Part shown: positions 3-62,888 of the stretch, one piece after another
Layout: every line of letters begins with the position of its first letter
Numbering within the stretch: the stretch's first letter is position 1
Virus record (IMG/VR): IMGVR_UViG_3300025809_001850
Reading direction: 5' to 3' (one strand)
Length of the DNA: 64,000 nt
From: a virus
Taxonomy: Duplodnaviria > Caudoviricetes
The notes under the pieces: model-generated
The model's input: only the letters and a program-made list of their open reading frames with translations
Databases searched by the model: none
Told to the model about the DNA's origin: nothing
Position numbers and translations under genes: made by a program

Positions 3-3000
3 GCTCGAGGAGGAATGAGTGGAATTTTTCGTGAATCAATTACACCAGAAAATGCTTTGATTATAGCAGGTGGAGGAGGTGGAGCTGCGAATGTAACTTA
101 TCCTGGTGTTGGAGGTGGAGCAGGTGGTGGAAAAAACGGAGATGCCGGTTCTGTTCTTCCAGGTGATAAAAAAGGAGGTGCAGGAGCAACACAATTGTCT
201 GGTGGTGACGGTCATTTTCTTGGAAGTGACGGTGAAACAAATTCATGGGCAAGTGGTGGTGGAGGAGGAGCAGGTTGGTTTGGTGGCACAGGAGGTCAAA
301 CAACAAGTGCAACATGGACGAACGAATCTTTACTTGAATCTGCACAAGGAACTGGTGGAGGTGGATCGGGACATCTAGATAATGTAATTGTATCAGGATC
401 ATTTTCAACGGGTACAACTGGGAGAAAAGGTGAAACTACAATAATCAAATCTCCAAAACCAAGCATGATAAATTGTGCAGATGATACGGTTGTAACTTGT
501 ACACCTGATTTTATATGCATTGAAGAACCTGGAAATGGTTCTGATATTCCACCGAATTTAGCAGGTATGGCGGGAACATATAAATTAAGAAAACCGGGTA
601 CAGACTCAGTTTTAACGGGTAATTCATATCCAGATAAGTGGATTGGTTACAACAATACGTGGATCAGAACGACCACCTATTTAGGTAATAAAAAACCAAG
701 TTCAAGTTATGGCATTTTGACACGACAGAATGACGCATGGGGAGGTCAATATTGGATATATTATGCAAGTGTGGTTGGATATTTTGATATGCATGGTCAC
801 GCAATAAATCCGGCGCAATATACTGTCCCCGTGGAGACCCGCACCACCCACTTCAATATTCCAAAAATATTTGATTCGGAAAACACTGAAACAACGTGTA
901 TTACGAAAGCAACATCTATATTGTTTGGAAATAATCCATTCCGCGTGGGTTATAACAAAAAAATACCCATCATTGTTACTCCAACTGAATGTCCACCTGT
1001 TGAATGTACATTTGAAATTAGCAACATTACGGATACAGAACCAACAGGAACAGAAAACACAATCGGAACTTTTGATTTAACGATAAATTTAAGTAGTTTG
1101 TATGATTATGGAACCAGTGGTTATGTTCGTGCAATGGAAGCAGAATTTAGTGGAATAGAATTAGCAAAGAATAATGCCATAGTAGCAACAACCTTTGATT
1201 TATATAAAAACGATTCTTCAAAAACAAATGAAGAACAAGAAATGTGGACGGAACTTAGCAATAAAACTCAAACTATTTTATCAAACATTGGTGAAATTAC
1301 TGAATCACGAAACAAAATAATGTTTGCGGATTTATTGCAGAATCAAGGATTTAGATTAGCAGCTTATGTAAACACAACTATTACATTTACAATTTCATAT
1401 ACTCAAAAAACCACCGACTATTTTTATGTAAGTTCTGCGGAATTTTATGATTCGTCAACGGATATAAATCAGTTTCATGGAATAATATGTACACCCAACA
1501 CACCAACTCCGTCACCGACAATTACTCCATCACCTACAGTTTCACCAACGGTAACCGCATCACCAACGGTAACTCCGTCTCCAACTATTTGTTTTGAAGA
1601 TGCGTTTTGTATTGTAGAATCTGCTGATTTATACGGACTTCATGCAAATTACGAATTAGTTGAAGAAGAAAGTGATGAAAATGGTGCGACTTACATAGCA
1701 GTAAATGCAGATATAGCATTTGATGCTGATATTCATGTGCCTATAAAAATTAAACAAATAGGTGGTTACTCTTCGAATGTTTGGCAGATTCAAACAGATG
1801 ATCCTACTAAAGAACCATGGCCAATCAAAAATTTGTTTAAACCTATGTTAAATCAAGACTTGCATTTCTTAGATAAAAACAGAAATCATGTGCATTGTAT
1901 GAGTCAAGTTAGTTACATTGATTTTGCTGATGCAGGTATTACATCACACGGATCAACTAATAATCTAATAAGAACTGGTGTACGAGAATGGGACGCAGAA
2001 TCAACTACCAGTGCATTTACTCGTTATATAATTACACAAAACTTTGAATTGTATGTGGCAGGTACCAGTAACATAGGTTCGGGTCATTATTATAATTCAT
2101 CATATTCATACTCAGATACCAATCCGTATTACTTAAGAGGTTGTAATCCACTTGGAATTGATTATACTGAAATTTCTGAACGACGTTCTGTATTTTTACC
2201 AGATGGTTATTGGCATGAAGGTGTAGTTTACAGAAGTTTTGAACATGATTTTGATTTTTATCAAAAACTTCCGATAGAAAATGTTCAAAAAGTAAGAACC
2301 AGTGATCATAACTTTGGTTTGTTAATTCAAACACAGACAGGTGAAGTTTATGGTACAGGTCACTTCAAAAAGAGTTTAACTGAAAATATTTCACGTATTC
2401 AGGAACTAGATGGAATTGATATTGATGAATTGGTTACGGTGGACACTGTATATTGTGAAAATGATGCAGTTAACTCAGACGAACCAATTTTAAACTTTGC
2501 ATTTGCGTATATTGATAAAGCAGATGAGTCAAAGTTAGTTTATTATGTACCTACATTTACTGAACTTTCATGGAGTGAATTTTTGCAGACAGGTGCTTTT
2601 ACAGACATTCAACTGAATTATCCTTATGTAACTGGTTATACAAAAATCACAACTTCTAATTTAACTAATGTTAAAAGTATTATTCCGTTTAAAGATACTG
2701 GATTTTTCTGTGTACAGACCAACGATGATAAATTATGGACACACGGTGTGGTAAAAGAAATGCAGATTCCAAGTGGTTCTGAAGTAGTTAGTTATCTAGG
2801 AGTGGGTGGTGGCACCCGTGACTACAATGTTTCATTCATTGATTATACGAACGCATTTGATGATCAAAACCAAGTGTTTACAGAAGTTCAAAATATACCA
2901 ACTATATTATATACCACAACAGACGAACACGGATTAAGAAGTCCTGTGTTGTCGTATATGATTCAACTATCCGACAAAAATGTGGATGTTTCACTAAGTG

Positions 3001-5090
3001 AGTTCTTGCCATATTATTTGAGTGATACCACCAATTTGAAATTGATCAAATCGGGAGTGGATTATGATGAAGTTACTGGACACGAAACGACAAAAATGTT
3101 TAGAGTATTATATGCTTCACAAAATTCAAACTGGGAATTAGATACACATCATATGCGAAGTCAGTTTGCAGTTGCATACAACGAAGACAAACTAACATTT
3201 GGTTATTTGACAATAACTGACAAAATAAACTTTAATCATAATCTTGATTCTACATTGTTGGAGAATTTATTCACAGATGCCAATGACGCATATAATGTAA
3301 GCAATCCAACTGAATTTTACAATAAAATAAAAAAGATTACATTTGCAACTTATCCATTTTCAAATGGAGAAAAAATAACAAGACAATCAGATGGTGAACT
3401 TGTGGTTCCTGTGACTCGTACACACAAGCATATTGTGTCGGTATTGTTTAATGAAAATCAATACAACAAACGATTGGCAGTAGATGCGTTGATATCATAT
3501 CATTGGAGTTTTCTTTACTTAGGTAGTTCATATTCATCAGCTGAATTGGAATTACAACAAGAGCAACACAATTATGAAATTTCAATTTATAATTTTAGTC
3601 AAGATTACTTTTATGCAGAAGGAACAGGAAGTTTAGTTGATGATATATCAACATTTGGTTATCAATTAAACACTTCAATTGAAAATAACTATCGATATTA
3701 TGAAGCAGACGGATTCAATGGTGATCACATTCATGATCGTGGTGATATAGTTAAATTTGGTCTTGGAACTGAGATAAGTGTCGTGGATGATTGTACATTC
3801 GAACCACCCACACCAACTCCTTCAAGAACCACTTCATATACTCCAACACCGTCAATAACTCCGTCACCAACTATCACTTGTGGAGAACCGGATTACACTA
3901 ATGTAGAAAATACTTTTGTATGCGTTAATGGGATGACATTACAATTTGTTGGATTTGATAAATTAGAATCACAAGGAGGAAGACCAATTTATGAAACACC
4001 AAGTGGTAATGCTAGAATTTATTGGGGTGGTTACCAAGGATGGATTTTAATAGTATGTAATAATCCTGACGAACCACTTCGGGACGATTGCTACAGTGAA
4101 TGGACTCACTCTATTCCAAATGCGTGTGATTTTTATCCGTGGGAAGCAGATTGGTCCGTAACTCAATATGATACACGCATTCAGCATTTAGTGGATGATA
4201 GAGGGGGTCAAGGTGATAATGATACAAGATATTTTGATTATTGGTACGCAGGAAGTCCAGTTGGTGGAGAAAGTGACTGGTACGGGTCAGTTGATGTCAA
4301 AAATTGTACACCATGTGATGCTTGTTTAATAGAACCAAATCAATATAGTTTGACTGAATTAGGATTACCCGCAGTAAATTCTTTAAGTGCAGAATGGTAT
4401 CGTGATTTTGGTGGATCATTGTGTTACGGATTGATACATTACACACAAAATGAAAACTTTCAAATATTCAAAACATACATTGCTTACATTGAAAATGATG
4501 CATCACCAATCGGAACAATTACAATTACAGGTGAGTTCATCGGTTCTGATTTAATAACTTATCAGTCACCTTTAAATGAATGTTATATTGCAACACCTAC
4601 CATTGAAGGATCACAAAATGTTTATAGATTTATCAAAGAAGAAGCAACACCGACACCATCCGACACAAGTTCACCTACACATACACCGTCTCCTACATTT
4701 ACACCGTCTCCGTCACCTACCATAACACCAAGTCCATCACCGAGTCCGTCTGTAACGCACACACCAAGTCCAACTGAAACACCTGAATCCGAGTTATCTT
4801 GTTGCACAGAAGGTTTGATTGCAAACATAATTTCTAAAAACACAGAAATAGAATTTGGTTCACCGACAATAACTGCAACTGCGTTTACTTTCAATGCGGA
4901 AGTTTGTGTAGATGTGCCTGATGGAGGATTGCCATATAGTGTAAAACTTAAACTGAATAATGCTATCGTTGGAGTGCTAACCACAACTGGAGTTATGACA
5001 GGAACAATTTATGTAAAAAACACAGACACAGAAGTTTGTTACACAGGAACAATTGTAAATGATGAATGTTCACTAACTATTTTACAATAA
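3..5090 (+). CDS. Large modular virion/fibre-like protein, 5'-partial (>1691 aa): Gly-rich domain, cohesin-like domain, RCC1-like propeller, PWxxDW domain, two CC-domains, three PT/PS linkers
   Basis: The frame is open to the window edge (3-14 = A-R-G-G before the ATG at 15, which lies inside a Gly-rich domain: LIIAGGGGGA...GGGGAGWFGG...GGGGSG), so the true start is upstream. RCC1/BLIP-II-like strands at about 2030-2830 (ELYVAGT, IQTQTGEVYGTG, VQTNDDKLWTHG). PT/PS tracts at 1491-1589, 3804-3878 and 4647-4790. Virion role is inferred from context. Confidence 0.8.
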   Translation, partial: ARGGMSGIFRESITPENALIIAGGGGGAANVTYPGVGGGAGGGKNGDAGSVLPGDKKGGAGATQLSGGDGHFLGSDGETNSWASGGGGGAGWFGGTGGQTTSATWTNESLLESAQGTGGGGSGHLDNVIVSGSFSTGTTGRKGETTIIKSPKPSMINCADDTVVTCTPDFICIEEPGNGSDIPPNLAGMAGTYKLRKPGTDSVLTGNSYPDKWIGYNNTWIRTTTYLGNKKPSSSYGILTRQNDAWGGQYWIYYASVVGYFDMHGHAINPAQYTVPVETRTTHFNIPKIFDSENTETTCITKATSILFGNNPFRVGYNKKIPIIVTPTECPPVECTFEISNITDTEPTGTENTIGTFDLTINLSSLYDYGTSGYVRAMEAEFSGIELAKNNAIVATTFDLYKNDSSKTNEEQEMWTELSNKTQTILSNIGEITESRNKIMFADLLQNQGFRLAAYVNTTITFTISYTQKTTDYFYVSSAEFYDSSTDINQFHGIICTPNTPTPSPTITPSPTVSPTVTASPTVTPSPTICFEDAFCIVESADLYGLHANYELVEEESDENGATYIAVNADIAFDADIHVPIKIKQIGGYSSNVWQIQTDDPTKEPWPIKNLFKPMLNQDLHFLDKNRNHVHCMSQVSYIDFADAGITSHGSTNNLIRTGVREWDAESTTSAFTRYIITQNFELYVAGTSNIGSGHYYNSSYSYSDTNPYYLRGCNPLGIDYTEISERRSVFLPDGYWHEGVVYRSFEHDFDFYQKLPIENVQKVRTSDHNFGLLIQTQTGEVYGTGHFKKSLTENISRIQELDGIDIDELVTVDTVYCENDAVNSDEPILNFAFAYIDKADESKLVYYVPTFTELSWSEFLQTGAFTDIQLNYPYVTGYTKITTSNLTNVKSIIPFKDTGFFCVQTNDDKLWTHGVVKEMQIPSGSEVVSYLGVGGGTRDYNVSFIDYTNAFDDQNQVFTEVQNIPTILYTTTDEHGLRSPVLSYMIQLSDKNVDVSLSEFLPYYLSDTTNLKLIKSGVDYDEVTGHETTKMFRVLYASQNSNWELDTHHMRSQFAVAYNEDKLTFGYLTITDKINFNHNLDSTLLENLFTDANDAYNVSNPTEFYNKIKKITFATYPFSNGEKITRQSDGELVVPVTRTHKHIVSVLFNENQYNKRLAVDALISYHWSFLYLGSSYSSAELELQQEQHNYEISIYNFSQDYFYAEGTGSLVDDISTFGYQLNTSIENNYRYYEADGFNGDHIHDRGDIVKFGLGTEISVVDDCTFEPPTPTPSRTTSYTPTPSITPSPTITCGEPDYTNVENTFVCVNGMTLQFVGFDKLESQGGRPIYETPSGNARIYWGGYQGWILIVCNNPDEPLRDDCYSEWTHSIPNACDFYPWEADWSVTQYDTRIQHLVDDRGGQGDNDTRYFDYWYAGSPVGGESDWYGSVDVKNCTPCDACLIEPNQYSLTELGLPAVNSLSAEWYRDFGGSLCYGLIHYTQNENFQIFKTYIAYIENDASPIGTITITGEFIGSDLITYQSPLNECYIATPTIEGSQNVYRFIKEEATPTPSDTSSPTHTPSPTFTPSPSPTITPSPSPSPSVTHTPSPTETPESELSCCTEGLIANIISKNTEIEFGSPTITATAFTFNAEVCVDVPDGGLPYSVKLKLNNAIVGVLTTTGVMTGTIYVKNTDTEVCYTGTIVNDECSLTILQ

Positions 5091-5105
5091 CTTTAAATAA
5101 CCTAA

Positions 5106-5113
5106 TATTTATA
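5106..5113 (+). promoter_or_regulatory. TATTTATA putative phage promoter element
   Basis: Recurrent intergenic motif; here 16 nt before the ATG at 5130. Confidence 0.5.
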
Positions 5114-5129
5114 TACTAACGAATTTCAA

Positions 5130-8100
5130 ATGGCAGACTTAACACAAATCAATGGAAATCAACGAATCGTCATGGGATGGTACGGTTCATGCGATGATGC
5201 AGGATGTGAAGATTTCCCACTCAAAACACAAGAAGTGTCGGATGCAATTGATAGTGTTTATGAAATTCATACAGATTCAACCCGAGCAGTTGCATTTCAT
5301 TCTTACATTTATGAAACGATGCCCAATCAAACTCAATCGTTGGAATCGTTAAAATGTGGTCATTCTTATTACATTGCATTGAAATCTGGAAACGAAACTT
5401 TAACAATTGAAGAATTTGTTCTCGCAGATGAAAGCACAACGCAAGAACGATATGTAACAACTGATGACCAATGTGGTGATGGAGGTGATGGTGGAGGTGG
5501 AGGTGGAGAATGTCCTGAGTGTCCTGATTGCCCATCAGTTGATCCAATAATTTTACCTACAACTGGAACAATTGCGTGTTGGAGTAATTTAAATTTTGCG
5601 TTAAACGGATCAGATGCAAATTCATTTCCTAAATACAAAGCAACTACTGAATTGGGTCATGTTATTGAAATTTATCATGATTCTGATAATAAAAGATGGA
5701 TAATCAGAGGTCATGCGGTTACACACGGAGCTCCCACATCAACTCCAATTGGATTAGCAGCCTTTTCAAAACCTTCACCCTGTGCATTTTTTCCGTGGCA
5801 AGTAGATTGGGATGTAGATAAAAATTCCGAAGACGCATCTGCTTGGTTACAATCAATAAAAACAGAGTATCAATATTCAAATATATGGTGGGCAATGTCT
5901 ACTGATTTTCCGCAGGGAGGTGATGTAACTACAATCACAAACTGCACACCACTTACGGCAGAATGTCCTCCTTGTGTTAAAGATGCAACTATTGCTTTTA
6001 GTGCGAATCCTACCATAAGAAATCAAGATTCAGTTCCGTTAGGTTTTACATTTTCAGTTGATACATCAAGTTTAGCAAGTGAGTGTTCTTCAAACGAATG
6101 GAAATATTCTTTGTCTATAAAAGATGGAGAAACTTTAAAAACATCACAACAAATTTCAACTGATACAACTTTGATAAATGATTTGGTACCGGGTGGTGGA
6201 ACTTACATAATAAAAATATGGGGTGTAACTGAGTCCGGAACATTAATTACACCTGAACCTCATGTAGAAGCAGAATTGATAATGCCTTGGCCAGCAGCCA
6301 ATTATGAAGTACAAGATGATATTGATATTACTTACTTGGAATTTGAAGGACCCAACGATGATTCAGTTACTTTGTCGGATCCAGAAGGATGGGTTGCATC
6401 TGCGACAATTAAAAAATCAAGTACAATAACAAACGCAGAAAAATGGAAATATAGTTTAGACAATTCAACTTGGAATGAATTGACTGCATTAACAGAGACT
6501 ACTATTTCAACAACTGCAACTTTGTATTTCCGTTTAAAAGTCGGACATCTCGGTGGAAATGACGATACAGATTTAACTACCTTGAATAAATCTTACAATT
6601 CAGAAGTTACAATTGCTTACACAGAAAATAACGGAACACCACGTGAATTATCGTTGCCATTAAAAGGTAAAGTTTTAAATAGAATCATCGGAATAACTTC
6701 TTGGGTGAACAACAATAATACAGATTTTAAAGCAACTTTAACAATCAGCAAAAATCAGTTGACTCGTTGGCAATATCAGTTGGAAAAACTAAACGATGAC
6801 GAAGCATCATATGGTACTCCTAAAATTTTGACTGCATATGGAGCAATTCAATCTGATACTTCAGAGGTAATTGATCTTCAAACTTACATAGAATCATCAA
6901 CTGCTGATATGGGTCCTGGATACTACAAAATAAGTGTAAGGGGTGTTCATAATACAGATAATAATATTGTAGTAACTCCGGAAATATCAGTACACGACTT
7001 TTTTAATTATCCTGATGTAATATTTGATATAAACGATATTTCATGGCCAAACTCTAATAGTGAACCAGTGCAGCTGCAGGTTGAATATCGTGAATATGAA
7101 GGTCCTACTGAAATGGCACAATTCAAAATCACAAATGACAAGTATTTTGATCATTGGACATTTGCGTATAATACCGAGTCTTCATCCTTCCCTCCTTCCG
7201 ATATAACACCCAACACAGATTACAATTATCAACTTGATGACGAATCTATTATATCGTCATTGCCCACAACGCACACAAATATAGCAAAAAAAGCACTAGG
7301 TATCCAATTGATTTCAAAAAACGCATCAGATACACCAACCGTTTACGAGCTCGGTGACATCCAATCCCGGGAAGATCCTCTCAGAAGAGACTACTATGCA
7401 TGGGTCCACATCCACATATACGGTAAAAACGCAATTTCAACACTTGCAGAACCTGCGAATCCAGTGTACTACAGTGCCGAGGTGACAACTTGGGTTTTAG
7501 AACGTTATATAACATCTTTCTCTCCAGACCAACGAGAATCTCCTTACCACAACAAAATTACGTTAGATCTACAGTGTAACTTCAATGAAATTAATCGTGC
7601 TCAGATAATATGGACAAAAAATACAACTGAGTTAACCGACACAGGAATTACACAACTACCAAATTATAATCATTTTATAACACCTGACTACACAATTGAT
7701 TTGAATGACGTTCCAAGTAATTATCTTACAGATAACAACGATTTCAATATTTCAGTTATTGGTCATTCAACAACAGATACCGATGTCATTCACGAAGCCG
7801 GATGGATCGCAGGACAAGTTGCACCTGCACTGGAACACACTTTTACGGTATCATGGCCAACTACAATATTTACGGTGTCGGAAACAATTTCCGATACTTA
7901 TATTTGGCAAGGTGTTACTGCAACACCAGCAACAAACGGAACATTAGCATCAATCACAAAAGGTTGGGTTAAAACAATAACATTAAATAATCCCACAGGA
8001 ACCGATGTTGGCAATTGGCAATATTCAATAAACAACGGAGAAAATTGGAGTAATTTGACAGGTGTGAACGTGGAAGTTCCTGATCATACATCAGAAGGAC

Positions 8101-53428: not shown

Positions 53429-53973
53429 ATAAAAAAATCGCAATAATACAAACAAGTCCGCAACGTTCCGCAAGCACTTTGCTGATGAATGCTATTCTTG
53501 GGTTTATACTACCAAATCAATTTGCATATTATGTGGATGCACCCGGTAAAAAGACGCAACTTTCACGGGCAAAGTCTGCAATGGAAAATCCATTTATAAT
53601 AAAAAGTCACGCATGGAGTGTACAAAATAAATGGCAAAGGTATTTAAAAGATTATGAATGTTATTTTATAGCATCTGAACGCAGAGAGTTGGGTTTAAAT
53701 GTTGATATAACAAATGATAGAACATTAGTTATTCCATTTGAGATGTTACTTGAAACTCCATCTTATTCATTAGATGAAATCGTTGATCAGTTGTACAAGA
53801 AATTTTTAAACTTTTTACCGAAACAACTCACTCTTGATAAGAAAGATTGCGTAAAAAGACTCAGAGGTATGAACGATATGACTCGTAAAATGAGTAACAA
53901 AAGTTTTTCAGACTATGATCTTTTTTACGGCATACATGGTGGTCACCGAAATCGTGGAGGTAAAAATTTTTAA
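53425..53973 (+). CDS. Short sulfotransferase-like (P-loop) protein
   Basis: IQTSPQRSASTLL, IIKSH, IPFE.L; C-terminal GIHGGH. Confidence 0.45.
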   Translation: MNKKIAIIQTSPQRSASTLLMNAILGFILPNQFAYYVDAPGKKTQLSRAKSAMENPFIIKSHAWSVQNKWQRYLKDYECYFIASERRELGLNVDITNDRTLVIPFEMLLETPSYSLDEIVDQLYKKFLNFLPKQLTLDKKDCVKRLRGMNDMTRKMSNKSFSDYDLFYGIHGGHRNRGGKNF

Positions 53974-53985
53974 TTGTTTTGTCAA

Positions 53986-54804
53986 GTGAAATATTTAACT
54001 GCAAAATTTGATTCTGGTACAAATGACGGTGCGACTTCACAAATGCACCGTAGACTATCAATCTGGGCATATTGCAAACTAAATAGTATTCAGTATGTTC
54101 ACACCCCATTTTTTACAACTGAGCATAATTACAATAATGATCCTAAGTTTGAAGACAAATGGGAAACTTTTTTTAATTTAGGTGACGGTGAATTGTCATT
54201 AAATGAAATCAATGAGTCTGAGTTAAATTACGAACCCTTTATGTCACACTATTTTAATCAACATGGTGTGGATTTATATGACAATGTGCGTGATGAATAT
54301 CGTGAAAAATATTTTAAAACGGAAAAACCAAAACTTGTTTATGATGAAAATTGCATGAATGTTGCAGTTCATGTAAGACGAGGCGATATTCTTGGTAAAC
54401 ACAGATTCAGGCAATTTGGTTTGTCAGATGATTATTATATTTCCGTCATGAAAAAACTTAACAAGGAATCAAAAGAAAACAGTGATAAAAAAATTAAGTT
54501 TTATGTATTTTCGGAATACAAAACACATACCAACAAACAACTTGGTGTAAATCTTAAAACCGGTAAGTGGGGCAACTACAATAAAACATTGTTTGACAAT
54601 TTTAAGAACTTGGATTTGGACTTAGAACTTATATTAAATGGATGTCCGTTTTCGGATTTTCACCATTTAATGATAGCAGATATTTTGGTAACAAGTAAAA
54701 GTTATTTTTCGTATGTACCTGCGTTAATGACAAAGAGTAAGGTAATATTTCATGATTGGGGAAATTATGCTTTACCGAAATCGTATTGGGAAGTGAATAA
54801 ATGA
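53986..54804 (+). CDS. Fucosyltransferase-like GT-B protein
   Basis: DGATSQ, YVHTP, VAVHVRRGD, FYVFSE, FHHLMIADILVTSKSYFSY. GTG start at 53986 chosen by paralogy to 41479. Confidence 0.7.
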   Translation: MKYLTAKFDSGTNDGATSQMHRRLSIWAYCKLNSIQYVHTPFFTTEHNYNNDPKFEDKWETFFNLGDGELSLNEINESELNYEPFMSHYFNQHGVDLYDNVRDEYREKYFKTEKPKLVYDENCMNVAVHVRRGDILGKHRFRQFGLSDDYYISVMKKLNKESKENSDKKIKFYVFSEYKTHTNKQLGVNLKTGKWGNYNKTLFDNFKNLDLDLELILNGCPFSDFHHLMIADILVTSKSYFSYVPALMTKSKVIFHDWGNYALPKSYWEVNK

Positions 54805-55727
54805 AAAAACACTTTATAATCAAATCGGGTGACGAAAACGCAGGATTCACTGCATACATAAAGTTTGCTTTAAATGGCATTCTTTATGCGGAGCAACACG
54901 ATTTGATTCCCGTTGTCAACTTTGACAATTCAATTCGCAATTTCTTTTACGAAGAATCTTACGGAGAAAATACATGGGAATATTATTTTGAACCAGTTGC
55001 GAAGATTTCATATGCAGATGTGACCGAGAACAATTTATCAAAGTGTACACTGAAGGATAGACAATTCCGTAATCAGAACTCACATCCGAATCCTGATCGT
55101 GTTGATACGTTTTGGAAAAGTGATAGAAAAATTGGTGGAGATGAACATAAAGGTGATCCAAAAAATTGGTTAGAAAGCAAACGTAAGATTGCACGTGAAT
55201 TGATGAGAAAGTATGTTGTTGTAAAACCACACATTCAAAAAATCGTGGACAACTTCGTTGATGAAAATTTTAATAACAAGAATGTTATAGGTTGCCATGT
55301 CCGTGGAACTGACTTTGCCTATGCCACCGCAACTTCAGTTGAAAAATATTTTGAGATATTAGATACGCAAAAAGATGTATACATTTTTCTTGCAACTGAC
55401 CAAACCCAATATGTTGACTTGTTTAAAGAACGATACGGAACTGAAAAAGTTTTAACATACGATAGTTTGCGAAGTGATAATGATGTAGCTGCGTTTGAAC
55501 TTGAAAACGGAAGTCCATATAAAAAAGGAGAAGATGTATTAATTGACACATTGCTTTTAAGTAGAACAAATTCAATTATCAAGTGTGCAGCTGCTGGTGG
55601 TGAGTTTGCTTTATGGTTCAATGAAAATCTTAAAGTCCTTCACGACTTTGCATTAGAAAGTCAATTTCAAAAGGGTGGTCATTGGAATCGTGAAAATACT
55701 GCATTTCAAAGACTTAAAATAAATTAA
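54801..55727 (+). CDS. NodZ/alpha-1,6-fucosyltransferase-like GT-B glycosyltransferase
   Basis: AGF, NTWEYYFEP, IGCHVRGTD, IFLATD, GEDVLIDTLLLSRT; paralogue of 48015. Confidence 0.75.
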   Translation: MKKHFIIKSGDENAGFTAYIKFALNGILYAEQHDLIPVVNFDNSIRNFFYEESYGENTWEYYFEPVAKISYADVTENNLSKCTLKDRQFRNQNSHPNPDRVDTFWKSDRKIGGDEHKGDPKNWLESKRKIARELMRKYVVVKPHIQKIVDNFVDENFNNKNVIGCHVRGTDFAYATATSVEKYFEILDTQKDVYIFLATDQTQYVDLFKERYGTEKVLTYDSLRSDNDVAAFELENGSPYKKGEDVLIDTLLLSRTNSIIKCAAAGGEFALWFNENLKVLHDFALESQFQKGGHWNRENTAFQRLKIN

Positions 55728-55735
55728 ATATATTA

Positions 55736-55743
55736 TATTTATA
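55736..55743 (+). promoter_or_regulatory. TATTTATA element 4 nt before ATG
   Basis: ATG at 55748. Confidence 0.55.
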
Positions 55744-55747
55744 GAGT

Positions 55748-56443
55748 ATGGGGGATTTATTAAAAATGTTTGACGGAATTGTGTGTATTTGCATGGATTC
55801 TGAAGAAGATAAATGGCAATCACATTGTGCGCCTCAATTTCAGAAACTTGGATGTTTGGATAGAGTAATTCGATACAAAAGTTTGAAAATTAAAGATGGT
55901 TCGGATATTAGAAAAAAATACAAAGGTACGACTTTTGCACACTATAATGCAATAAAATTATGCCAAGAAAAAAACTTTAAAAATCCTTTAATACTAGAAT
56001 CAGACTTTTGGTTCGTCTCAATGAATTCTGAAAATGAAATAGAAAGACTTGACGATGATAGTAATTTTATTGATAAATCATTTATGGATGCGAAAACTAA
56101 AAATTGGAAATTGTTTTCACTTGGTGGACTCATAAGAAAACTAATTTCAATTGAAAGTGATTATCTTTTTCGAGTGTGGAGAGAGCATTCTCATGCTTAT
56201 TGTATAAATGGAAACTATTATGATGACGTATTATCAACAATTGGCAAAAAATTAAATAAACCAATTGATTGGATTTATACAAAAAAGAAATTTGGTGGGG
56301 ACTTAAGATATTATAGTTATATGACATCTAAATTACTTGTTGTTCAGAAATGGGGTAAACTTGAAAGAAAAAGGAGACGTCATGCAAGAAAGATGTGGGG
56401 ACGAAGAACACTAAACTTTAAACCAAATAAACCTGAGGAATAA
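55748..56443 (+). CDS. GT25-like glycosyltransferase
   Basis: FDGIVCI, AHYNAI, LILESD, WKLFSLGG, HSHAYCIN, IDW. Confidence 0.7.
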   Translation: MGDLLKMFDGIVCICMDSEEDKWQSHCAPQFQKLGCLDRVIRYKSLKIKDGSDIRKKYKGTTFAHYNAIKLCQEKNFKNPLILESDFWFVSMNSENEIERLDDDSNFIDKSFMDAKTKNWKLFSLGGLIRKLISIESDYLFRVWREHSHAYCINGNYYDDVLSTIGKKLNKPIDWIYTKKKFGGDLRYYSYMTSKLLVVQKWGKLERKRRRHARKMWGRRTLNFKPNKPEE

Positions 56444-56488
56444 ATGGGAAGACCACAGAATAAAGAAAAACTAAATAAAGAACAATGA
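56444..56488 (+). CDS. 14-aa mini-ORF MGRPQNKEKLNKEQ that bridges two genes
   Basis: The ATG follows the upstream TAA directly, and its TGA overlaps the next ATG (ATGA). Translation is not demonstrated. Confidence 0.35.
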   Translation: MGRPQNKEKLNKEQ

Positions 56489-57114
56489 TCTATACACATA
56501 TACCATATACACCAAACGAACATGGAACTAATTTAGGTTATTCCTATAATAAATTTATGGAGATTCTTCCAAATGATGACGATTGGGGATGCTTTCTAGA
56601 CCACGATGCGATGTTCACGACATCAACTTGGTATAATCAAATATCCGAAATTGTTGAGAAGAATCCTGATATAGGTGCATTTGGAGCAAGAACAAATAGA
56701 ATTGCAAAAAAATATCAACTTGTTGGAAATATTGATCCACATAATCATGACATCACATACCACAGGAAAATAGGAAACTATTTGCAAAATACTTACTATG
56801 ATGACATCTTGCATATCAACAGAAAAACACGTCCAAAGGGATTTGGTGGAGTTTTCATTTTGCTAAAGAAAAGTGCGTGGAAGATTATAGGTGGATTTAA
56901 GAAAACAGGATTTACAGGGGTCGATGATGATTTGAGAAGTAGATTACATCATGCAAAAATTCCGTTTCATATTATGAATGGGTTGTATGTGTATCACTGG
57001 TATCGTGCAGATAATCCATATTCTCATGGTCAAAGAAGAATGGCAAAGATAAACAAGTTTTACCAAAAATACAATAAAGAAAATTTTGATTTAGATAAGA
57101 TATTTTTGTATTAA
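56485..57114 (+). CDS. GT2-like glycosyltransferase
   Basis: YTHIPY, NLG..YN, CFLDHDAMF, GGVFILLKK..W..IGGF, GVDD, VYHWY. Confidence 0.7.
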   Translation: MIYTHIPYTPNEHGTNLGYSYNKFMEILPNDDDWGCFLDHDAMFTTSTWYNQISEIVEKNPDIGAFGARTNRIAKKYQLVGNIDPHNHDITYHRKIGNYLQNTYYDDILHINRKTRPKGFGGVFILLKKSAWKIIGGFKKTGFTGVDDDLRSRLHHAKIPFHIMNGLYVYHWYRADNPYSHGQRRMAKINKFYQKYNKENFDLDKIFLY

Positions 57115-57121
57115 AAATAAA

Positions 57122-57976
57122 ATGAAAGGACTAATATTAGCAGGAGGAAGTGGTACTCGTTTGTATCCAACAACGAGTGTAGCAAGCAAGCAATTGCTTA
57201 TGCTTTACGATAAACCAATGATTTACTATTCGTTGTCGAGTTTATTAAGATTCGGTATCAACGAAATATGTATAATCTCTAACGACATCGGGTTGAGATT
57301 TTTCCGCAAACTTTTTGGTGATGGAAAAAAGTTCGGATGCAAATTTGAGTATGTTCATCAGGAAAAAAGCAACGGAATCGCAGAAGCATTTATTCTTGCG
57401 GAAGACTTTATTAAAAATGATCCTGTGTGTTTGATTTTGGGTGACAACTTTTTTCATGCTTCAAATAAATTCTTTGAAATTGAAACGCCGATAAAAGGAG
57501 GAACAGTGTTTGCTTATCGTGTGGAAGATCCAGAAAGATACGGAGTTGTTGAATTTGATAAAAATAAGATTGCATTGAGTATTGAAGAAAAACCAAAGAA
57601 ACCCAAAAGCAATTATGCAGTTACTGGATTATATTTCTACGACAATGATGTGGTGGAGATTTCCAAGAATTTAAAACCATCGGATCGTGGTGAACTTGAA
57701 ATTACAGACGTCAACAATGTGTATTTGGAACGAGGTGATCTTAAAGTAAAAGTAATGCCCAATGGAAGTGCGTGGTTAGACGCAGGAACTGCTGAAAGTT
57801 TCTTTGATACATCTTCGTATATTCGCACCATTCAAAGAAGGCAAGGAGTGTGTATAGGATGCTTAGAAAGCATTTGCCTAGAGCAAAACTTTATTGATGT
57901 TCAGCAATATGATCGTTTATTAAGAAAAATTCCGAAATCTTCATATAAAGATGCTTTGCGTGGAAAGTTTTTATGA
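57122..57976 (+). CDS. rmlA: Glucose-1-phosphate thymidylyltransferase
   Basis: MKGLILAGGSGTRLYP, SKQLL..YDKPMIYY, LILGDN, DPERYGVVEFD, SNYAVTGLYFYD, RGELEITD, WLDAGT. Confidence 0.95.
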   Translation: MKGLILAGGSGTRLYPTTSVASKQLLMLYDKPMIYYSLSSLLRFGINEICIISNDIGLRFFRKLFGDGKKFGCKFEYVHQEKSNGIAEAFILAEDFIKNDPVCLILGDNFFHASNKFFEIETPIKGGTVFAYRVEDPERYGVVEFDKNKIALSIEEKPKKPKSNYAVTGLYFYDNDVVEISKNLKPSDRGELEITDVNNVYLERGDLKVKVMPNGSAWLDAGTAESFFDTSSYIRTIQRRQGVCIGCLESICLEQNFIDVQQYDRLLRKIPKSSYKDALRGKFL

Positions 57977-58796
57977 ATAAAAAAACATTAATAACATTTA
58001 TTCACTATGATCGTGGTGATAAAGAAATACTTTATAGAGAAAACTTAAATTTTTTTCAAAAAAATGGTGTAATTGAAAACGAAAATTATCATTATAAATT
58101 TGTGATAAATAGTGAAACTGGTATAGAAAATATTATTCCAAGAAAAAATGTTTCTGCAATTCAAGGACACAACAAAGGATATGACTTTGGTGCTTACAAA
58201 CAATCAATTGATTCTGTAAATATAAATGATTTTGATTATTTTATTTTTATAAATGATACTTGTCGTGGTCCTTTTGTTGCTGATTATGTTCCTTCAAGTT
58301 TAACTTGGGTTGATATGTTTTTGGATAAAATAGATGATAAAGTAAAAATGGTAGGACCTACTTGGTGGAATTTGAGAAAAAATAGGTATGTAGAAAAGAA
58401 GTTCGGGTGCAAACGCGGGCAGGGAACACATATTCAAAGTTATTGTTTCGGTGTAGATAAAATAGCATTAAATCTATTGCTAAAAAATAATAAATTTGAT
58501 ACAGAAAATAAAGAAAGAAATCAAGTCATAGGTGAACACGAAATTGGATGTAGTAGGTTGTTAATAGAAAACGGATACAAAATCAGACCATTTCAAATGT
58601 CAAAATATGATTGTGGTGAAACTGGAGATGTAGTCTTTCCCGACCAATATTTTGGTACAACACTAAATCCATTTGAAATTATGTTTATTAAAACAAATAG
58701 AATCAACAATCAAATCGTTAAAAACTATACAAACTGGTTTATGCAAAAATAAAAAAATCTTCATACAAAGATGCTTTAATAGGAAAGTTTTTATAA
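57935..58796 (+). repeat. 42-nt direct repeat (57935-57976 and 58755-58796): the rmlA 3' end duplicated after the inserted gene
   Basis: 36/42 identical; the copies encode KSSYKDALRGKFL* and KSSYKDALIGKFL*. Confidence 0.92.
57973..58752 (+). CDS. Rhamnan-synthesis (RgpF)-like hypothetical protein
   Basis: NKGYDFGAY, FIFINDTCRGP, HIQSYCFG, E.G.S..L..NGY; very AT-rich; flanked by a duplicated rmlA 3' end. Confidence 0.55.
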   Translation: MNKKTLITFIHYDRGDKEILYRENLNFFQKNGVIENENYHYKFVINSETGIENIIPRKNVSAIQGHNKGYDFGAYKQSIDSVNINDFDYFIFINDTCRGPFVADYVPSSLTWVDMFLDKIDDKVKMVGPTWWNLRKNRYVEKKFGCKRGQGTHIQSYCFGVDKIALNLLLKNNKFDTENKERNQVIGEHEIGCSRLLIENGYKIRPFQMSKYDCGETGDVVFPDQYFGTTLNPFEIMFIKTNRINNQIVKNYTNWFMQK

Positions 58797-58803
58797 TAAC
58801 TCA

Positions 58804-58811
58804 TATTTATT
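58804..58811 (+). promoter_or_regulatory. TATTTATT variant 3 nt before ATG
   Basis: ATG at 58815. Confidence 0.45.
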
Positions 58812-58814
58812 ATT

Positions 58815-59699
58815 ATGATATTATTAATAGGTGGTACAGGATACATCGGACTTAAATTTCAGGAGATTTTGTCTTCACGAAACATTGAGTTTAGAAATCT
58901 TTCAAGAAGTGAAGTTGATTATTATGATTTCAAAACATTGAACGATGTAATTGTTAATGCAAAACCTGAGTTTGTATTAAACGCAGGAGGTTTCACAGGA
59001 AAACCAAATGTTGATCAATGCGAAATCAACAAAAGTGGAACTATCATTGGGAATGTTCTTCTTCCTCAGATTCTTGGTCAAGTATGCGAACTTAACGATG
59101 TTCCTTTGGTTCATGTAAGCAGTGGTTGCATTTATGCGGGTGACAAAGGAGAAGATGCTAACGGAGATAAAATCGGTTTTACCGAAGACGATGTTCCAAA
59201 CTTTTCATACGATCAACCTCCTTGTAGTTTTTATAGTGGAAGCAAGGCACTTGGTGAAGAAATACTTTCCAAGTTTGAAAAGGTGTATACTTGCAGACTT
59301 AGAATTCCATTTGATGAGTTTGATTCTAATCGTAATTATTTATCCAAGATTCAAAGATACGACAAAGTTTACAACGCAGTTAACTCAATTTCACATCGTG
59401 AAGAATTTGTTAATGCTTGTCTTGATTTACCATTGAATAAATGCGACTATGGAATCTATAATGTAACCAATGGGGGATATGTGACAACCAAGCAAGTCGT
59501 TGAGTGTATGAAAAAGAAGTTTAAGTTGGAAAAGGAATTTGAATATTGGGAAGATGATTCAGAGTTTTATAGCAAAGGAGCAACTGCACCACGATCAAAT
59601 TGTGTGATGGACAATAGCAAATTATTAAACACAGGTATTAAAATGCGTTATTGTATGGATGCAATTGCGGATTCGTTTGACAAATGGGTAAAGGAGTAG
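58815..59699 (+). CDS. RmlD-family SDR most like the bifunctional NDP-4-keto-6-deoxyglucose 3,5-epimerase/4-reductase (NRS/ER, UER1 type)
   Basis: GGTGYIG, NAGGFTGKPNVDQCE, SSGCIY, F.E.D.PNF, SFYSGSKA, RLRIP, RNYLSKI.RYDKV, GIYN.TN.G, APRSNC. Confidence 0.8.
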   Translation: MILLIGGTGYIGLKFQEILSSRNIEFRNLSRSEVDYYDFKTLNDVIVNAKPEFVLNAGGFTGKPNVDQCEINKSGTIIGNVLLPQILGQVCELNDVPLVHVSSGCIYAGDKGEDANGDKIGFTEDDVPNFSYDQPPCSFYSGSKALGEEILSKFEKVYTCRLRIPFDEFDSNRNYLSKIQRYDKVYNAVNSISHREEFVNACLDLPLNKCDYGIYNVTNGGYVTTKQVVECMKKKFKLEKEFEYWEDDSEFYSKGATAPRSNCVMDNSKLLNTGIKMRYCMDAIADSFDKWVKE

Positions 59700-60232
59700 A
59701 AAACGATATTACAAAGGGTAGACATTCTTATTTTAATGGCTATGTAACTTGGAATTTATTTAATCATAAATTGATTATTGGAAATTTTTCAAGTATAGCT
59801 GCAAAAGTAGAAATTATGCTATCAAACGGCAGAGGTCACGATATTAACAATGTTTCTACGTTTCCATTTGGTCATATTCACAAAGAAATCTTCCAAAATG
59901 TAGATCAAAAATCTAAAAACACAAATGGAGATGTTGTTATTGGAAGTGATGTATGGATTGGTGAAAATACCAAGATACTCAGTGGTGTTACAATCGGTGA
60001 TGGTGCAGTGATTGCAAATAATAGTCATGTAGTTAAAGATGTAGAACCATATTCAGTTGTCGGTGGAAATCCTGCAAAACATATCAAGTTTCGTTTTGAT
60101 GAAGAAACTATTAAAAAACTTCTTAAAATACAATGGTGGAATTGGGACGATGAAAAAATTCAGGAAAATGTGAACTTATTATGTAATGATGACATACAAA
60201 AGTTTGTAGATAAATTTTATAATGAAACCTAA
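59684..60232 (+). CDS. Hexapeptide-repeat (CatB/XAT-like) O-acetyltransferase
   Basis: IGNFSSIA, STFPF, GDVVIGSDVWIG, GVTIGDGAVI, VVKDVEPYSVVGGNPAKHIKFRF, WW.W. Confidence 0.9.
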   Translation: MGKGVENDITKGRHSYFNGYVTWNLFNHKLIIGNFSSIAAKVEIMLSNGRGHDINNVSTFPFGHIHKEIFQNVDQKSKNTNGDVVIGSDVWIGENTKILSGVTIGDGAVIANNSHVVKDVEPYSVVGGNPAKHIKFRFDEETIKKLLKIQWWNWDDEKIQENVNLLCNDDIQKFVDKFYNET

Positions 60233-61196
60233 AAACATATTAATAACAGGAGGTTGCGGATTCATCGGTTCAAATCTTGTTCTGCATCTTGCGAAGAAGT
60301 ATCCTAATTACAAGTTAATCAACTTGGATTTAATGACATATGCTTCTGACGCAAGTTATTTAAAAACGTTAAAAGACAATCCAAATTATTTACTCGTGAA
60401 AGGAGATATTCGTGATGAAAACTTGGTCAATTCACTTTTTGATGAACACAACATTGATTCAGTAATTCACCTTGCAGCCGAATCACACGTAGACAATAGC
60501 ATCAAACGACCATTGGACTTCGTTACAACGAATGTGGTCGGAACTTGCGTATTGCTTGAGGTTTTCCGTAGAAAATGCACAGGAAGGTTTCATTACGTGT
60601 CCACCGATGAAATCTATGGAACACTCGGCAAAGAAGGTCTGTTCACCGAGACCACTCCTCTTGCTCCGAATAGTCCGTATAGTGCAAGCAAGGCAAGTGG
60701 GAACTTTTTCGTAGACGCATATTACGAGACTTACGATTTGAATGTAATTACAACAAGTTGCAGTAACAATTATGGTCCACATCAGCATCGTGAGAAACTA
60801 ATTCCAACGATTGTTCGTACTGCGATTGCAGGAAAGAATATTCCAATTTACGGAAACGGAGACAACGTGAGAGATTGGTTGTTTGTAGAAGATCATTGTG
60901 TTGCGATTGATGAAGTATTTCACAACGGAAAAATCGGTGACATATATAACGTGGGTGGAGACAAAGAACTCAACAATCTTGAACTTGCAAATAAAATCTG
61001 TGATATTCTTGATGAATTAAAACCCAAAACAACAAAATACTCCAAACAACTAACGTTTGTTGAAGATCGTAAAGGACATGATTTCAGATACGCAGTTGAT
61101 TTCAGCAAAATCCATAACGAATTAAATTGGAATCCCACGAAGGATTTTGAAGGAAAGTTGCGTGAGACAATAGCATGGTGCATCAAAAATTTGTAA
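60222..61196 (+). CDS. rmlB: dTDP-glucose 4,6-dehydratase
   Basis: ITGGCGFIGSN, LDLMTYA, HLAAESHVDNSI, STDEIYG, PNSPYSASKA, CSNNYGP.QH.EKLIP, YGNG.NVRDWL.V.DH, DRKGHD.RYA. Confidence 0.95.
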   Translation: MKPKNILITGGCGFIGSNLVLHLAKKYPNYKLINLDLMTYASDASYLKTLKDNPNYLLVKGDIRDENLVNSLFDEHNIDSVIHLAAESHVDNSIKRPLDFVTTNVVGTCVLLEVFRRKCTGRFHYVSTDEIYGTLGKEGLFTETTPLAPNSPYSASKASGNFFVDAYYETYDLNVITTSCSNNYGPHQHREKLIPTIVRTAIAGKNIPIYGNGDNVRDWLFVEDHCVAIDEVFHNGKIGDIYNVGGDKELNNLELANKICDILDELKPKTTKYSKQLTFVEDRKGHDFRYAVDFSKIHNELNWNPTKDFEGKLRETIAWCIKNL

Positions 61197-61214
61197 TATA
61201 TATTATATTTAAGA

Positions 61215-62888
61215 ATGATGGATGAAATTAAAACGGCAGTTTATGCGTATTGGGCAAAACCATTTGCAGAAAAAAACGTTTATAGTAATTTCCAACGCAA
61301 AAACGATTTGCTTGTTTCATTAAAACTGAGTGTTGAGCAATCAAGAAAGTTTTTTGACAAGATTGTATTTTATGGAGATCACGAAGCAATTTCTCAGATT
61401 TGTAAAATCATTGAGTTTGATGAAATATACGATGACATTGAAGAATTAAATCAAAAAAATATTCCTGATTATTTTTATTCTTTGCCCAAGGCAATCGTAT
61501 GCGAAAAAATGCGAGAACCATTCGTGTTACTTGAAAATGATTTTTATTTGTGGGAAATTCCGTCCGAAAGCAAACTGTTAAATTCTGAATTAATTGTAGA
61601 AGATATGCACGTAACACCAGATGGTTACTATAAAGAAATATCTAATATGAAATCAGACGGATTAAATACTCGTCCAAGGTGGTATCGTTTTGCAAACAAA
61701 GGAGAATTTAAAATACCAAGCAAAGGCATTTACGGAGGAACAAACATCAAGTTCATTAATGAACACGCAGCTGAAGTAATTAAGTTAACAACTAATCCTG
61801 AAAATTTATCAAGATTTCAAGTTGAGAATGCAAATAAATCTTACAAAAATACGCACTTGGTTTATGATCTTTGGTATTGCGGAGCAAAAATTGATACACA
61901 CAAAATAGAACCATTTAATGTTCGTGTGAGTGATGTAAAATACACTCATTTGTATTCAGATAAAAAGAATGATCCTGATGTAATCATTAAATTATACCAA
62001 CGAGTCAAAAAAGATTTGCCGGAATTTATGAATTCAATAAAAAGCAAAGAAAGTTCCGTGTTTGATCCTCTTTCAGATTATGATTATTTTATTGAACCAA
62101 TCAAAGGAATTGATAATGTTCCGTGTGGTAAAAAGAAATTGACTTTCGTTATGGCATTAATGAATCGTTCGCATCAAATTGAACAAACCTTATTAAAAAA
62201 TCTTGAAGATAATTGGGAAGACCGTGATGATATAGAGTTTCTTCTGATGGATGTAAACAGTAAAGACGGATTTAGAAATTGGATTCGTGAACAAAATTTA
62301 GAAAAATACATTGAGTGTGGTTATTTGAGATACTATGAAACTGAAATACTTGATCAATGGCACGCTAGCATAGGCAAAAACACCGCAACACATCAAGCAC
62401 GTGGAACAATAGTGGTTACATTAGACTGCGATAATTTTACAGGCTATCGTGGTGGTAGATTTGTGATAACGCAGTTTGAACAAAATGATTACAATTGCGT
62501 AGTACATCAATATGATTGGAAACCCCAAAACGGAAACTTTGGAAGAATTGCATTAACCAAAAAGAAATTCAATGAAATTGGTGGATACGATCAATCGTTA
62601 CTTCCTATGGGTTATCAAGATTGGGACATCATAAAACGTGCAGAAGCATCAGGATGCAAGTATGTTAATCCAACCGATGAAGAATTTAATCGTGCAATTA
62701 TGAATGAAGGTGGAAAAGAACTTAGTATGGCAAATCAAACAGATGTACACAAACAAATGGGATGGATTGAAATGAACCGTATCAACAAATTAAAGTGTCA
62801 TATCAATCTTTATCAGAAAAAACACAAAGCAAACGAAGGTTATTACGGAATTCGGTCTGACGTTCGCAATATTTATGGTGAAGAGTAA
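61215..62888 (+). CDS. Fusion protein: DUF6734-like N-domain plus GT2/GT7-like C-domain
   Basis: N-half W.KP...KAIV...PFVLLENDFYLW...YTHL; C-half VTLDCDNF, GRIALTKKKF.EIGGYD..L..GYQDWD. Confidence 0.65.
   Translation: MMDEIKTAVYAYWAKPFAEKNVYSNFQRKNDLLVSLKLSVEQSRKFFDKIVFYGDHEAISQICKIIEFDEIYDDIEELNQKNIPDYFYSLPKAIVCEKMREPFVLLENDFYLWEIPSESKLLNSELIVEDMHVTPDGYYKEISNMKSDGLNTRPRWYRFANKGEFKIPSKGIYGGTNIKFINEHAAEVIKLTTNPENLSRFQVENANKSYKNTHLVYDLWYCGAKIDTHKIEPFNVRVSDVKYTHLYSDKKNDPDVIIKLYQRVKKDLPEFMNSIKSKESSVFDPLSDYDYFIEPIKGIDNVPCGKKKLTFVMALMNRSHQIEQTLLKNLEDNWEDRDDIEFLLMDVNSKDGFRNWIREQNLEKYIECGYLRYYETEILDQWHASIGKNTATHQARGTIVVTLDCDNFTGYRGGRFVITQFEQNDYNCVVHQYDWKPQNGNFGRIALTKKKFNEIGGYDQSLLPMGYQDWDIIKRAEASGCKYVNPTDEEFNRAIMNEGGKELSMANQTDVHKQMGWIEMNRINKLKCHINLYQKKHKANEGYYGIRSDVRNIYGEE

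Follow-up and report, generated by a model that had tools for sequence, protein, structure and literature searches.

Genes for a probably sulfated glycan beside giant linker-bearing proteins in an uncultured marine phage: possible self-glycosylation of phage appendages

The 64,000-nucleotide stretch of IMG/VR virus record IMGVR_UViG_3300025809_001850 (Duplodnaviria; Caudoviricetes), called here the window at its full length, raises the question of what a tailed phage does with a long island of glycosylation genes placed directly after genes for giant proteins with Pro/Thr/Ser (PT/PS) linkers. The window is made of two linked modules, the giant multi-domain proteins (g01 to g07) and a glycan factory (g08 onward). 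Our preferred answer, to which we give a probability of roughly 40%, is that the phage glycosylates its own appendages in the host cytoplasm with a sulfated heteroglycan of L-galactose/fucose-type sugars and a deoxyhexose. The original prediction was close to this, proposing that the phage decorates its own fibre stalks with a possibly sulfated O-glycan; the soluble glycan apparatus, a promoter motif shared by both modules, their conserved linkage and nearby genes for the sulfate donor 3'-phosphoadenosine 5'-phosphosulfate (PAPS) spoke for it, whereas a known fibre or virion family and an initiating O-glycosyltransferase were missing.

All 53 open reading frames (ORFs) of at least 100 aa in the window lie on the + strand, as do all window features given below, and they tile the 64 kb with a G+C content of 29-40%. 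Identical copies of the window's proteins are encoded on many contigs from marine metagenomes, of which the longest measures 492,783 bp, and the source is an uncultured marine phage with a genome of about 0.49 Mb. Near-identical DNA is present in marine metagenome runs of at least 17 studies; such a widespread phage makes metaproteomic tests feasible.

The glycosylation island and its sulfation arm

A co-oriented glycosylation block of about 36.5 kb and 44 genes (26403-62888) had been proposed, and we recovered it in full. Its end at 62888 had to be abandoned, as glycan genes continue to about 72.9 kb in window coordinates, and the factory as a whole spans at least 46 kb and contains soluble enzymes only. 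Fifteen genes of the block passed the Pfam gathering score for glycosyltransferase (GT) families, with five GT77-like (Nucleotid_trans), two GT8 and three GT25 matches (g22, g23 and g40) and the families GT31/Fringe, GT64, PLOD-type, GT11, RgpF and GT2. About seven further GTs were recognised by sub-threshold match, motif or paralogy, among them three NodZ/FUT8-like genes (g08 included) and the GT25 paralogue g44; g31 is likewise a GT25 paralogue. The block also holds three firm Sulfotransfer_2 genes and three to four weak sulfotransferases, three DUF1796 genes, two genes for acetyl-type modification (an SGNH-like protein and a hexapeptide O-acetyltransferase) and four nucleotide-sugar enzymes (RmlA, RmlB, a divergent RmlD-like reductase and g14). 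Seven island genes had no Pfam match.

The island opens with a conserved core, g08 to g14 (26403..31930), in which g08 is a fucosyl/L-galactosyl-transferase-like (NodZ/FUT8-like) gene with an HIRRTD motif, g09 and g10 are sulfotransferase-like, g11 (28715-29491) carries DUF1796, and g12 and g13 belong to Sulfotransfer_2. The last gene of the core, g14 (30905-31930), is a clear GDP-mannose 3,5-epimerase (GME), with an E value of 3e-97 to the plant enzyme, and the phage can therefore make GDP-L-galactose. This implies L-galactose (or L-gulose) among the core sugars, and GDP-L-galactose may be the donor for the neighbouring fucosyltransferase-like enzymes.

The variable array that follows, g15 to g45 (31952..57114), contains according to Pfam five GT77-like, two GT8 and five to six GT25-like genes, the GT31/Fringe-type extender g19, one GT64, one PLOD-type, one GT11, two NodZ/FUT8-like and one GT2-like gene. 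Its sulfation genes are g17 (Sulfotransfer_2) and the weak sulfotransferases g29 and g41; DUF1796 recurs in g18 (35745-36278) and g37 (50430-51167), and g28 is the SGNH-like protein. Among these genes stands g16 (32944-35061), a 705-aa HATPase_c_3 (GHKL ATPase) protein that had no relative in PDB, PHROG or NCBIfam; a related contig carries two g16-type HATPase_c copies at the corresponding place. The array is succeeded by a dTDP-6-deoxyhexose operon (57122..61196) with RmlA (g46), an RgpF-like rhamnosyltransferase (g47), the RmlD-like reductase (g48), the O-acetyltransferase, of the XAT-class hexapeptide type (g49), and RmlB (g50). No RmlC was found in the operon, so its product may be a D-configured 6-deoxyhexose, or a host RmlC may be used. 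The last of the 44 genes, g51 (61215..62888), joins DUF6734 to a GT2/GT7C-type GT.

A T4-type deoxynucleoside monophosphate (dNMP) kinase recognised by Pfam (63355..63918) closes the window, and beyond it two Sulfotransfer_2 genes, an O-FucT/NodZ-like gene and three GT2/GT7C genes extend to about 72.9 kb, with LOG, MetK and QueF interspersed. Counted in and just beyond the window, there are six to nine sulfotransferases and at least 22 GTs. Further on, at about 84.4-88.3 kb (window-equivalent), we found genes for adenosine 5'-phosphosulfate (APS) kinase (cysC), CysD, CysN and an epimerase (galE). With cysC, cysD and cysN present the phage can make PAPS, and no sulfate-reducing genes were seen in the stretch read. 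A very large and self-sufficient phage apparatus for making a glycan is thus supported, and the gene content indicates that the product is probably sulfated.

The dNMP kinase and its surroundings also bear on the idea that part or all of the island serves to hypermodify the phage DNA with glycans, in the manner of T-even phages on their hydroxymethylated bases. Genes of dNMP kinase, LOG-like, QueF-like, MetK and PDDEXK type do lie within the array, and phage GTs that add varied glycans to DNA are known, as PMC12619734 cites from Pyle (2024). However, the window gave no Pfam match to the T4 DNA glucosyltransferase families or to a pyrimidine hydroxymethylase, and more than 20 GTs with sulfotransferases, an acetyltransferase, the GME and a deoxyhexose pathway are far more than any known glycan on DNA would call for. 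At most a few genes near the dNMP kinase would be explained in this way, and we consider DNA a most improbable target.

Giant proteins and their Pro/Thr/Ser linkers

The eight Pro/Thr/Ser tracts listed in the original prediction were all found in frame: three in g01 (1491-1589, 3804-3878 and 4647-4790), one in g03 (9430-9597) and four in g06 (17556-17663, 18285-18308, the length-polymorphic 18597-18971, and 21816-21890). The description of their host genes as structural-type stood only in so far as the tracts do lie in large ORFs; their structural identity is presumed, no known virion family having been matched. Under a strict rule (12-residue windows with at least 75% P/T/S and at least four Pro) we counted 11 tracts of together 290 residues in seven large proteins, whereas 1000 residue shuffles gave a mean of 0.13 tracts and never more than two. 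In the 46 proteins downstream of g07 there is one 12-residue tract only, in g16.

At the DNA level the tracts are tandem repeats with an 18-nt period, and the sole indel among four near-identical strains is one of 18 nt within the longest tract (18597-18971). Their positions are domain borders, often beside Cys, and relatives have tracts at the same positions with other lengths. For these reasons we take them as interdomain linkers that easily change length.

The genes g02, g03 and g04, and a further 1140-aa protein encoded upstream of the full-length g01, begin with a common four-Cys module of about 115 residues (W-Y-G-x-C ... C ... L-x-C-G-x-x-Y ... C), the N-module, which lies at 5130-5519, 8989-9408 and 11076-11465 of the window and at L014:469-858 of a contig that covers the upstream protein. 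An exhaustive profile search placed the module in 448 protein clusters, nearly always at residues 1-120, with highly varied cargo behind it (DUF6174, Calx-beta, Ig-like, FG-GAP, LamG and peptidases). A PT tract is present in 47 of the 81 family members of at least 300 aa (58%) and follows the N-module directly in 55 of 149 members. One of 60 N-module relatives ends in Gp53-like_C, a gp53-like fibre end. An AlphaFold2 (AF2) model of the N-module (predicted local distance difference test, pLDDT, 66) had no fold match and was uninformative on virion docking.

The seven giant genes differ in their further content. The window edge cuts g01 (15..5090), which here comprises the last 1691 codons of a 2017-aa protein; besides its three PT/PS linkers it has an ALK_LTK_GRD-type domain rich in glycine. 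The 1285-aa g02 (5130..8987) has no PT tract, the 681-aa g03 (8989..11034) continues after the N-module with a PS/PT linker of 53-62 residues (9430-9597), and the 1179-aa g04 (11076..14615) is 25% Thr+Ser, with Ig-like domain leads (Atlas). The N-terminus of g05 (14631..15623; 330 aa) is paralogous to that of full-length g01. The largest protein, g06 (15636..24650; 3004 aa), combines LamG and FG-GAP domains, a dockerin-like N-terminus and its four PT linkers, and the 557-aa g07 (24671..26344), conserved in relatives as the gene that immediately precedes the island, contains a dockerin-type Ca-loop motif.

A strain represented by contig L007 differs from the window in a mosaic manner between 11076 and 24650, with g06 98% identical and g04 and g05 only 64% and 61% identical, which fits recombinational exchange of appendage genes. 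A constant anchor with exchangeable cargo and mosaic evolution would fit displayed appendages. The first module, with at least eight giant proteins, docking-type N-modules, adhesion-type domains and length-variable linkers, thus probably encodes exchangeable virion appendages.

Linkage of the two modules and the acceptor of the glycan

We then asked on what the glycan is built. Neither a membrane segment (taken as a 19-residue stretch with a Kyte-Doolittle mean of at least 1.6) nor a signal peptide was predicted for any of the 53 window proteins. It follows that the island is without an initiating polyprenyl-phosphate transferase, Wzx, Wzy or ABC exporters, and that the giant proteins stay in the cytoplasm, the site of particle assembly. 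Over the 64-kb window and the roughly 20 kb beyond it to galE we found no initiating transferase, flippase, polymerase, ligase or exporter; in the window, the hallmarks of a Wzx/Wzy locus had no Pfam match, and as to those of ABC-transporter- or synthase-dependent loci there was neither a transmembrane protein nor an ABC-transporter Pfam match. At E values up to 0.01, none of the 46 proteins downstream matched GT4 (Glycos_transf_1), the commonest GT family in bacterial surface-polysaccharide loci, and a GtfA/GtfB pair was accordingly not seen; GT2 genes are few in the island.

The two modules have a promoter-like motif in common. ATATTTAT occurs 21 times in the window (11.4 expected) and in nine of 19 intergenic gaps, with sites at 5105, 11039, 28702, 32908, 43263, 55735, 58803, 62892 and nearby (range 5105..62899). 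It stands upstream of giant genes (g02 and g04 among them), of many island operons, of cysD and of the operon of a Peptidase_S74 (S74) fibre downstream of the window, so that the island is wired like fibre genes. The intergenic DNA of the window has no copy of a σ70-like TTGACTTTTTA cassette, of which three exact copies lie within 4 kb past galE, a switch that marks the border of the ATATTTAT-driven region. In this post-galE stretch (L012:17700-21600, about 88.3-92.2 kb) the cassette, in the form TTGACTTTTTA...TAnnnT, precedes small genes, some of them for membrane proteins (VanZ-like, rhomboid), and one gap holds a tRNA-like sequence.

Related loci were collected from the contexts of g07 homologues and from a metagenome scan with a g08 profile, which left about 20 usable. 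In every one of these marine loci the giant proteins come first, as a rule with g07 behind them, and are followed by g08, g09, a stretch of variable content, g11 and g14. As the order is fixed and other glycan genes lie in between, we regard the island as a cassette-variable locus between conserved anchors. Across relatives g14 is 93-98% identical, against 70-90% for its neighbours, which suggests strong constraint or recent exchange. In one relative the variable stretch encodes a GT6+DUF5672 protein, two sulfotransferase-like genes, an RgpF-like gene and a P4H/PLOD-type 2-oxoglutarate (2OG)-Fe(II) oxygenase (2OG-FeII_Oxy_3; L098:15649-16899). The oxygenase gene is found also on L099, in that lineage only and with PT tracts upstream, and hints at glycosylation of hydroxy-Pro or hydroxy-Lys there.

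The proposed test of whether the island co-varies with PT linkers across relatives provided no contrast, since no relative clearly has one feature only and all relatives are kin. In 12 of 18 related loci a PT tract was not seen within 10 kb upstream of the island. We do not take this as a refutation of the link, because one such lineage, when extended, revealed a 1598-aa N-module protein with five PT tracts further upstream.

In the mechanism that we propose, the island enzymes would act late in infection, before lysis, and would build a sulfated heteroglycan directly on phage appendage proteins in the host cytoplasm; both the protein acceptor and the virion location are points that we infer. 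As acceptors we envisage Ser/Thr residues, either of the PT linkers, which are plausible in this role, or of Thr/Ser-rich domains, and possibly also a collagen-like fibre, and turnover of the island cassettes would produce different glycan 'serotypes' among related phages. We favour this self-glycosylation because there are no genes for a lipid carrier, flippase, polymerase or exporter and the proteins are cytoplasmic; because the GT set consists mostly of GT-A families that decorate proteins in eukaryotes and giant viruses (GT8, GT25, GT31/Fringe, GT64, GT77 and PLOD-type), and g25 has as its sole solved relative a chain that bears the name of a Mimivirus collagen glucosyltransferase, R699; because ATATTTAT is common to the giant genes, the island and the S74 fibre operon; because the order of giant proteins and island is kept in all related loci examined, and the island is flanked by the giant proteins and the S74 fibre; because PT linkers are a trait of the N-module group; and because there are precedents in the fibril clusters of Megavirinae and in mycobacteriophage virions.

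Several points weigh against self-glycosylation. Beyond single domains, g01-g07 had no match to a known virion family, a PHROG, a PDB chain or a GenBank phage gene: g02 and g04 had no relatives in PDB, PHROG or GenBank phages, the searches with g06 returned LamG and FG-GAP domain matches only, and a known fibre family or hallmark domain (Peptidase_S74 chaperone, gp37/gp12 repeats) is absent from all seven. Virion membership of the giant proteins rests on context, and that ATATTTAT is a 'late' motif is again something that we infer. In many proteins PT linkers are spacers without glycans. The families known to initiate protein O-glycosylation (GT41, GT27 and GtfA/B-type GT4) were not detected; as regards a mucin-type system, PT repeats and the GT31/Fringe-type g19 are present, a GT27-type architecture was not seen, and seven island proteins are unannotated. 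Moreover, GT8, GT25, GT11, NodZ-like and RgpF enzymes are equally typical of the synthesis of lipooligosaccharide (LOS), lipopolysaccharide (LPS) and rhamnan, for which only soluble or peripheral GTs and host export are needed. Finally, 53 cyanophage records in GenBank have homologues of the phage GME (42-44% identity) within their 'cell-wall modification' islands, and these islands are read, by assumption, as remodelling the host surface (PMC7824862, PMC9602691).

The same facts can be turned into an account in which the phage GTs and sulfotransferases alter lipid-linked LOS/LPS-core, O-antigen or capsule intermediates of the host at the inner membrane face and the host exports the product, so as to block superinfection or to prevent progeny from adsorbing to debris; the PT linkers would then be plain spacers and their adjacency incidental. 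GT8, GT25, GT11, NodZ-like, RgpF and RmlABD are classic LOS/O-antigen enzymes, and since LOS-type synthesis needs only soluble GTs the absence of membrane genes is no bar. The GME homologues of T4-like cyanophage islands are accompanied by the same fucosyltransferase types (PMC9602691), and the cassette-like variability between conserved flanks resembles O-antigen loci, such variability being taken by Iyer et al. as diversification of host surface polysaccharides (PMC7824862). Against this stand the missing initiating transferase, flippase, polymerase, ligase and exporter, the missing GT4 genes, a promoter motif shared with fibre genes but not with the σ70-type cassette genes, the tight and conserved linkage to the giant-protein module, and the investment of about 10% of a 0.49-Mb genome, which is large for exclusion alone. 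We regard modification of the host envelope as somewhat less probable than self-glycosylation, and as a serious rival to it.

Glycosylation of the virion could also fall on acceptors other than PT linkers, either a collagen-repeat fibre (on Lys or hydroxy-Lys in Gly-X-Lys) or folded Thr/Ser-rich domains. GT25, which has five to six paralogues in the island, is the collagen galactosyltransferase family, but it also holds bacterial LOS galactosyltransferases. A collagen substrate is at hand just past the island in the S74 fibre (1934 aa; L012:4142-9946), which has three collagen-repeat stretches including GDK repeats, a LamG domain and a Peptidase_S74 chaperone, so that GT25 enzymes, a PLOD-type GT and collagen occur together. 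The PLOD-type GT g25, assigned by its family match, had a sole PDB match, to chain 9dyt_A; this chain is called 'R699', as is the collagen glucosyltransferase of Mimivirus (PMC9546862, PMC12279948), but the match is weak (E of 0.002 over 70 residues). The P4H/PLOD-type oxygenase in the island of a relative points in the same direction; in the window, however, no lysyl/prolyl hydroxylase of the 2OG-Fe(II) type was found. The fibre, furthermore, lies about 12 kb from the window and has no module in common with the giant proteins. An acceptor of this kind in place of the PT linkers seems to us unlikely.

Comparison with known systems and further features

The closest bacterial model for the self-glycosylation that we prefer is the pathway of Gram-positive serine-rich-repeat adhesins, in which soluble GTs (GtfA/B with GT8 and GT2 extenders) O-glycosylate Ser/Thr-rich repeats before export. 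Soluble GTs, GT8 included, are common to both. The differences are that our phage lacks an accessory Sec system, that no GT4 pair of GtfA/B type was found in it, and that its putative acceptor tracts are Pro-rich.

Among phages, the islands of T4-like marine cyanophages (P-SSM2, S-SCSM1, S-SCSM2R and S-SSM7) are alike in being marine and in having GME homologues, O-FucT/GT11/NodZ types, RmlB and several GTs (PMC9602691), and their content varies among relatives as well (PMC7824862). The combination of GME and RmlB with fucosyltransferase-type and other GTs is present here through g14, GT11 and the NodZ/FUT8-like genes. They differ in scale, the 13 GTs of S-SCSM2R having been described as perhaps a record among marine phages (PMC12801897), against at least 22 in this window and more beyond. 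The present locus also adds the sulfation arm (six to nine sulfotransferases and cysCDN) and has a direct and conserved link to giant PT-linker proteins. Its array of GTs and sulfotransferases is the largest that we found reported for a phage.

While virus-encoded glycosylation is already known, a sulfation arm appears from our searches to be almost absent from sequenced phages: relatives of Sulfotransfer_2 were found in three of 50,697 GenBank phage records and relatives of DUF1796 in none. The records with relatives of g13 are Stenotrophomonas phage DLP_6 and two unannotated uncultured huge phages, LR756500.1 (462 kb) and LR756508.1 (484 kb), the latter two of which may be further carriers of sulfation systems.

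In Megavirinae the fibril glycosylation clusters comprise 6-33 genes, some of them with a SAT/APS kinase, a sulfotransferase and a pair of 'papain-like' genes (PMC10117803). The clusters of Mimivirus, Moumouvirus australiensis, Cotonvirus and Tupanvirus resemble the present island in their clustered nucleotide-sugar pathways and many GTs, in their clade-specific content, in a collagen-type GT relative (R699), and in having, like the cysCDN, sulfotransferase and three DUF1796 genes here, a sulfation set beside genes annotated as papain-like. This last likeness is one of annotation, as the AF2 model of g11 (pLDDT 85.6) is an α/β sandwich and not papain-like. Foldseek gave no match for the model, and VIA-align gave Z scores of at most 6.4, below the safe threshold, to α/β folds of a generic kind, SGNH proteins or carbohydrate esterases in many cases, so that we assign no function to g11. 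By analogy with the 'papain-like' genes beside sulfotransferases in Megavirinae clusters, the DUF1796 family may be glycan-related.

At the level of genes, clustered GTs with sugar-nucleotide pathways, as in systems of virus-encoded virion glycosylation, are thus present. The locus differs from Megavirinae in belonging to a bacterial virus in a prokaryotic cytoplasm, in its size (at least 44 genes against 6-33) and in its sugars, L-galactose and a 6-deoxyhexose here against rare amino sugars there. Attachment to the fibrils has been shown chemically in Megavirinae, whereas here attachment to appendages is proposed.

Nearer to our phage in host type, mycobacteriophage virions (Che8, Corndog and Myrna types) are reported to be glycosylated on capsid and tail tube (Freeman, 2023, as cited in PMC12619734 and PMC12801897). 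In these citing accounts, phage GTs encoded near structural genes act in the cytoplasm on virion proteins of the same phage, as we propose here, but one to a few GTs are involved, the acceptors are capsid and tail-tube C-termini, and sulfation, nucleotide-sugar or PAPS supply and PT-linker giants do not figure. The moraphage paper itself (PMC12619734) deals with another lineage.

Were the glycan located on the virion, the phage would become the first known tailed phage whose own enzymes assemble a complex sulfated glycocalyx, and giant-virus-style self-glycosylation would extend to bacteriophages; a variable surface layer could then affect adsorption, grazing, aggregation and marine carbon export. 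Even if the target is the host envelope, the locus has a GT count above the possible marine-phage record of 13 (PMC12801897) and a PAPS-fed sulfation arm. In either case, the dozens of soluble GT-A enzymes free of transmembrane segments, with the carbohydrate sulfotransferases, are a resource for glycoengineering.

A more speculative use of the glycan, which we consider quite improbable, is as a strain-variable, sulfated, L-galactose/fucose-rich coat on the phage appendages that mimics algal sulfated galactans and fucans. With this coat as a bait, the phage would attract the polysaccharide-binding surface proteins of marine hosts that degrade polysaccharides, perhaps Bacteroidota, and the hypervariable island would encode phage 'serotypes' that track the glycan-uptake specificities of hosts. 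The closest cellular relatives of the phage RmlB are mostly from Bacteroidota (50-56% identity), a weak hint that the host may belong there.

Searches with the window returned no near match among GenBank phages, and the IMG/VR set searched had no relative of g04, g16 or g51 and no exact 36-mer match. Metatranscriptome contigs cover giant genes and island genes, and we take them to show presence only, as they come from related strains and DNA carry-over is possible. The overall gene order runs from the giant proteins through the island to the S74 fibre, a DUF6174 protein and a subtilase (Peptidase_S8; L012:11908-13101), the last of which contains a PTPTPTPTP linker and, at its C-terminus, a segment that is strongly hydrophobic.

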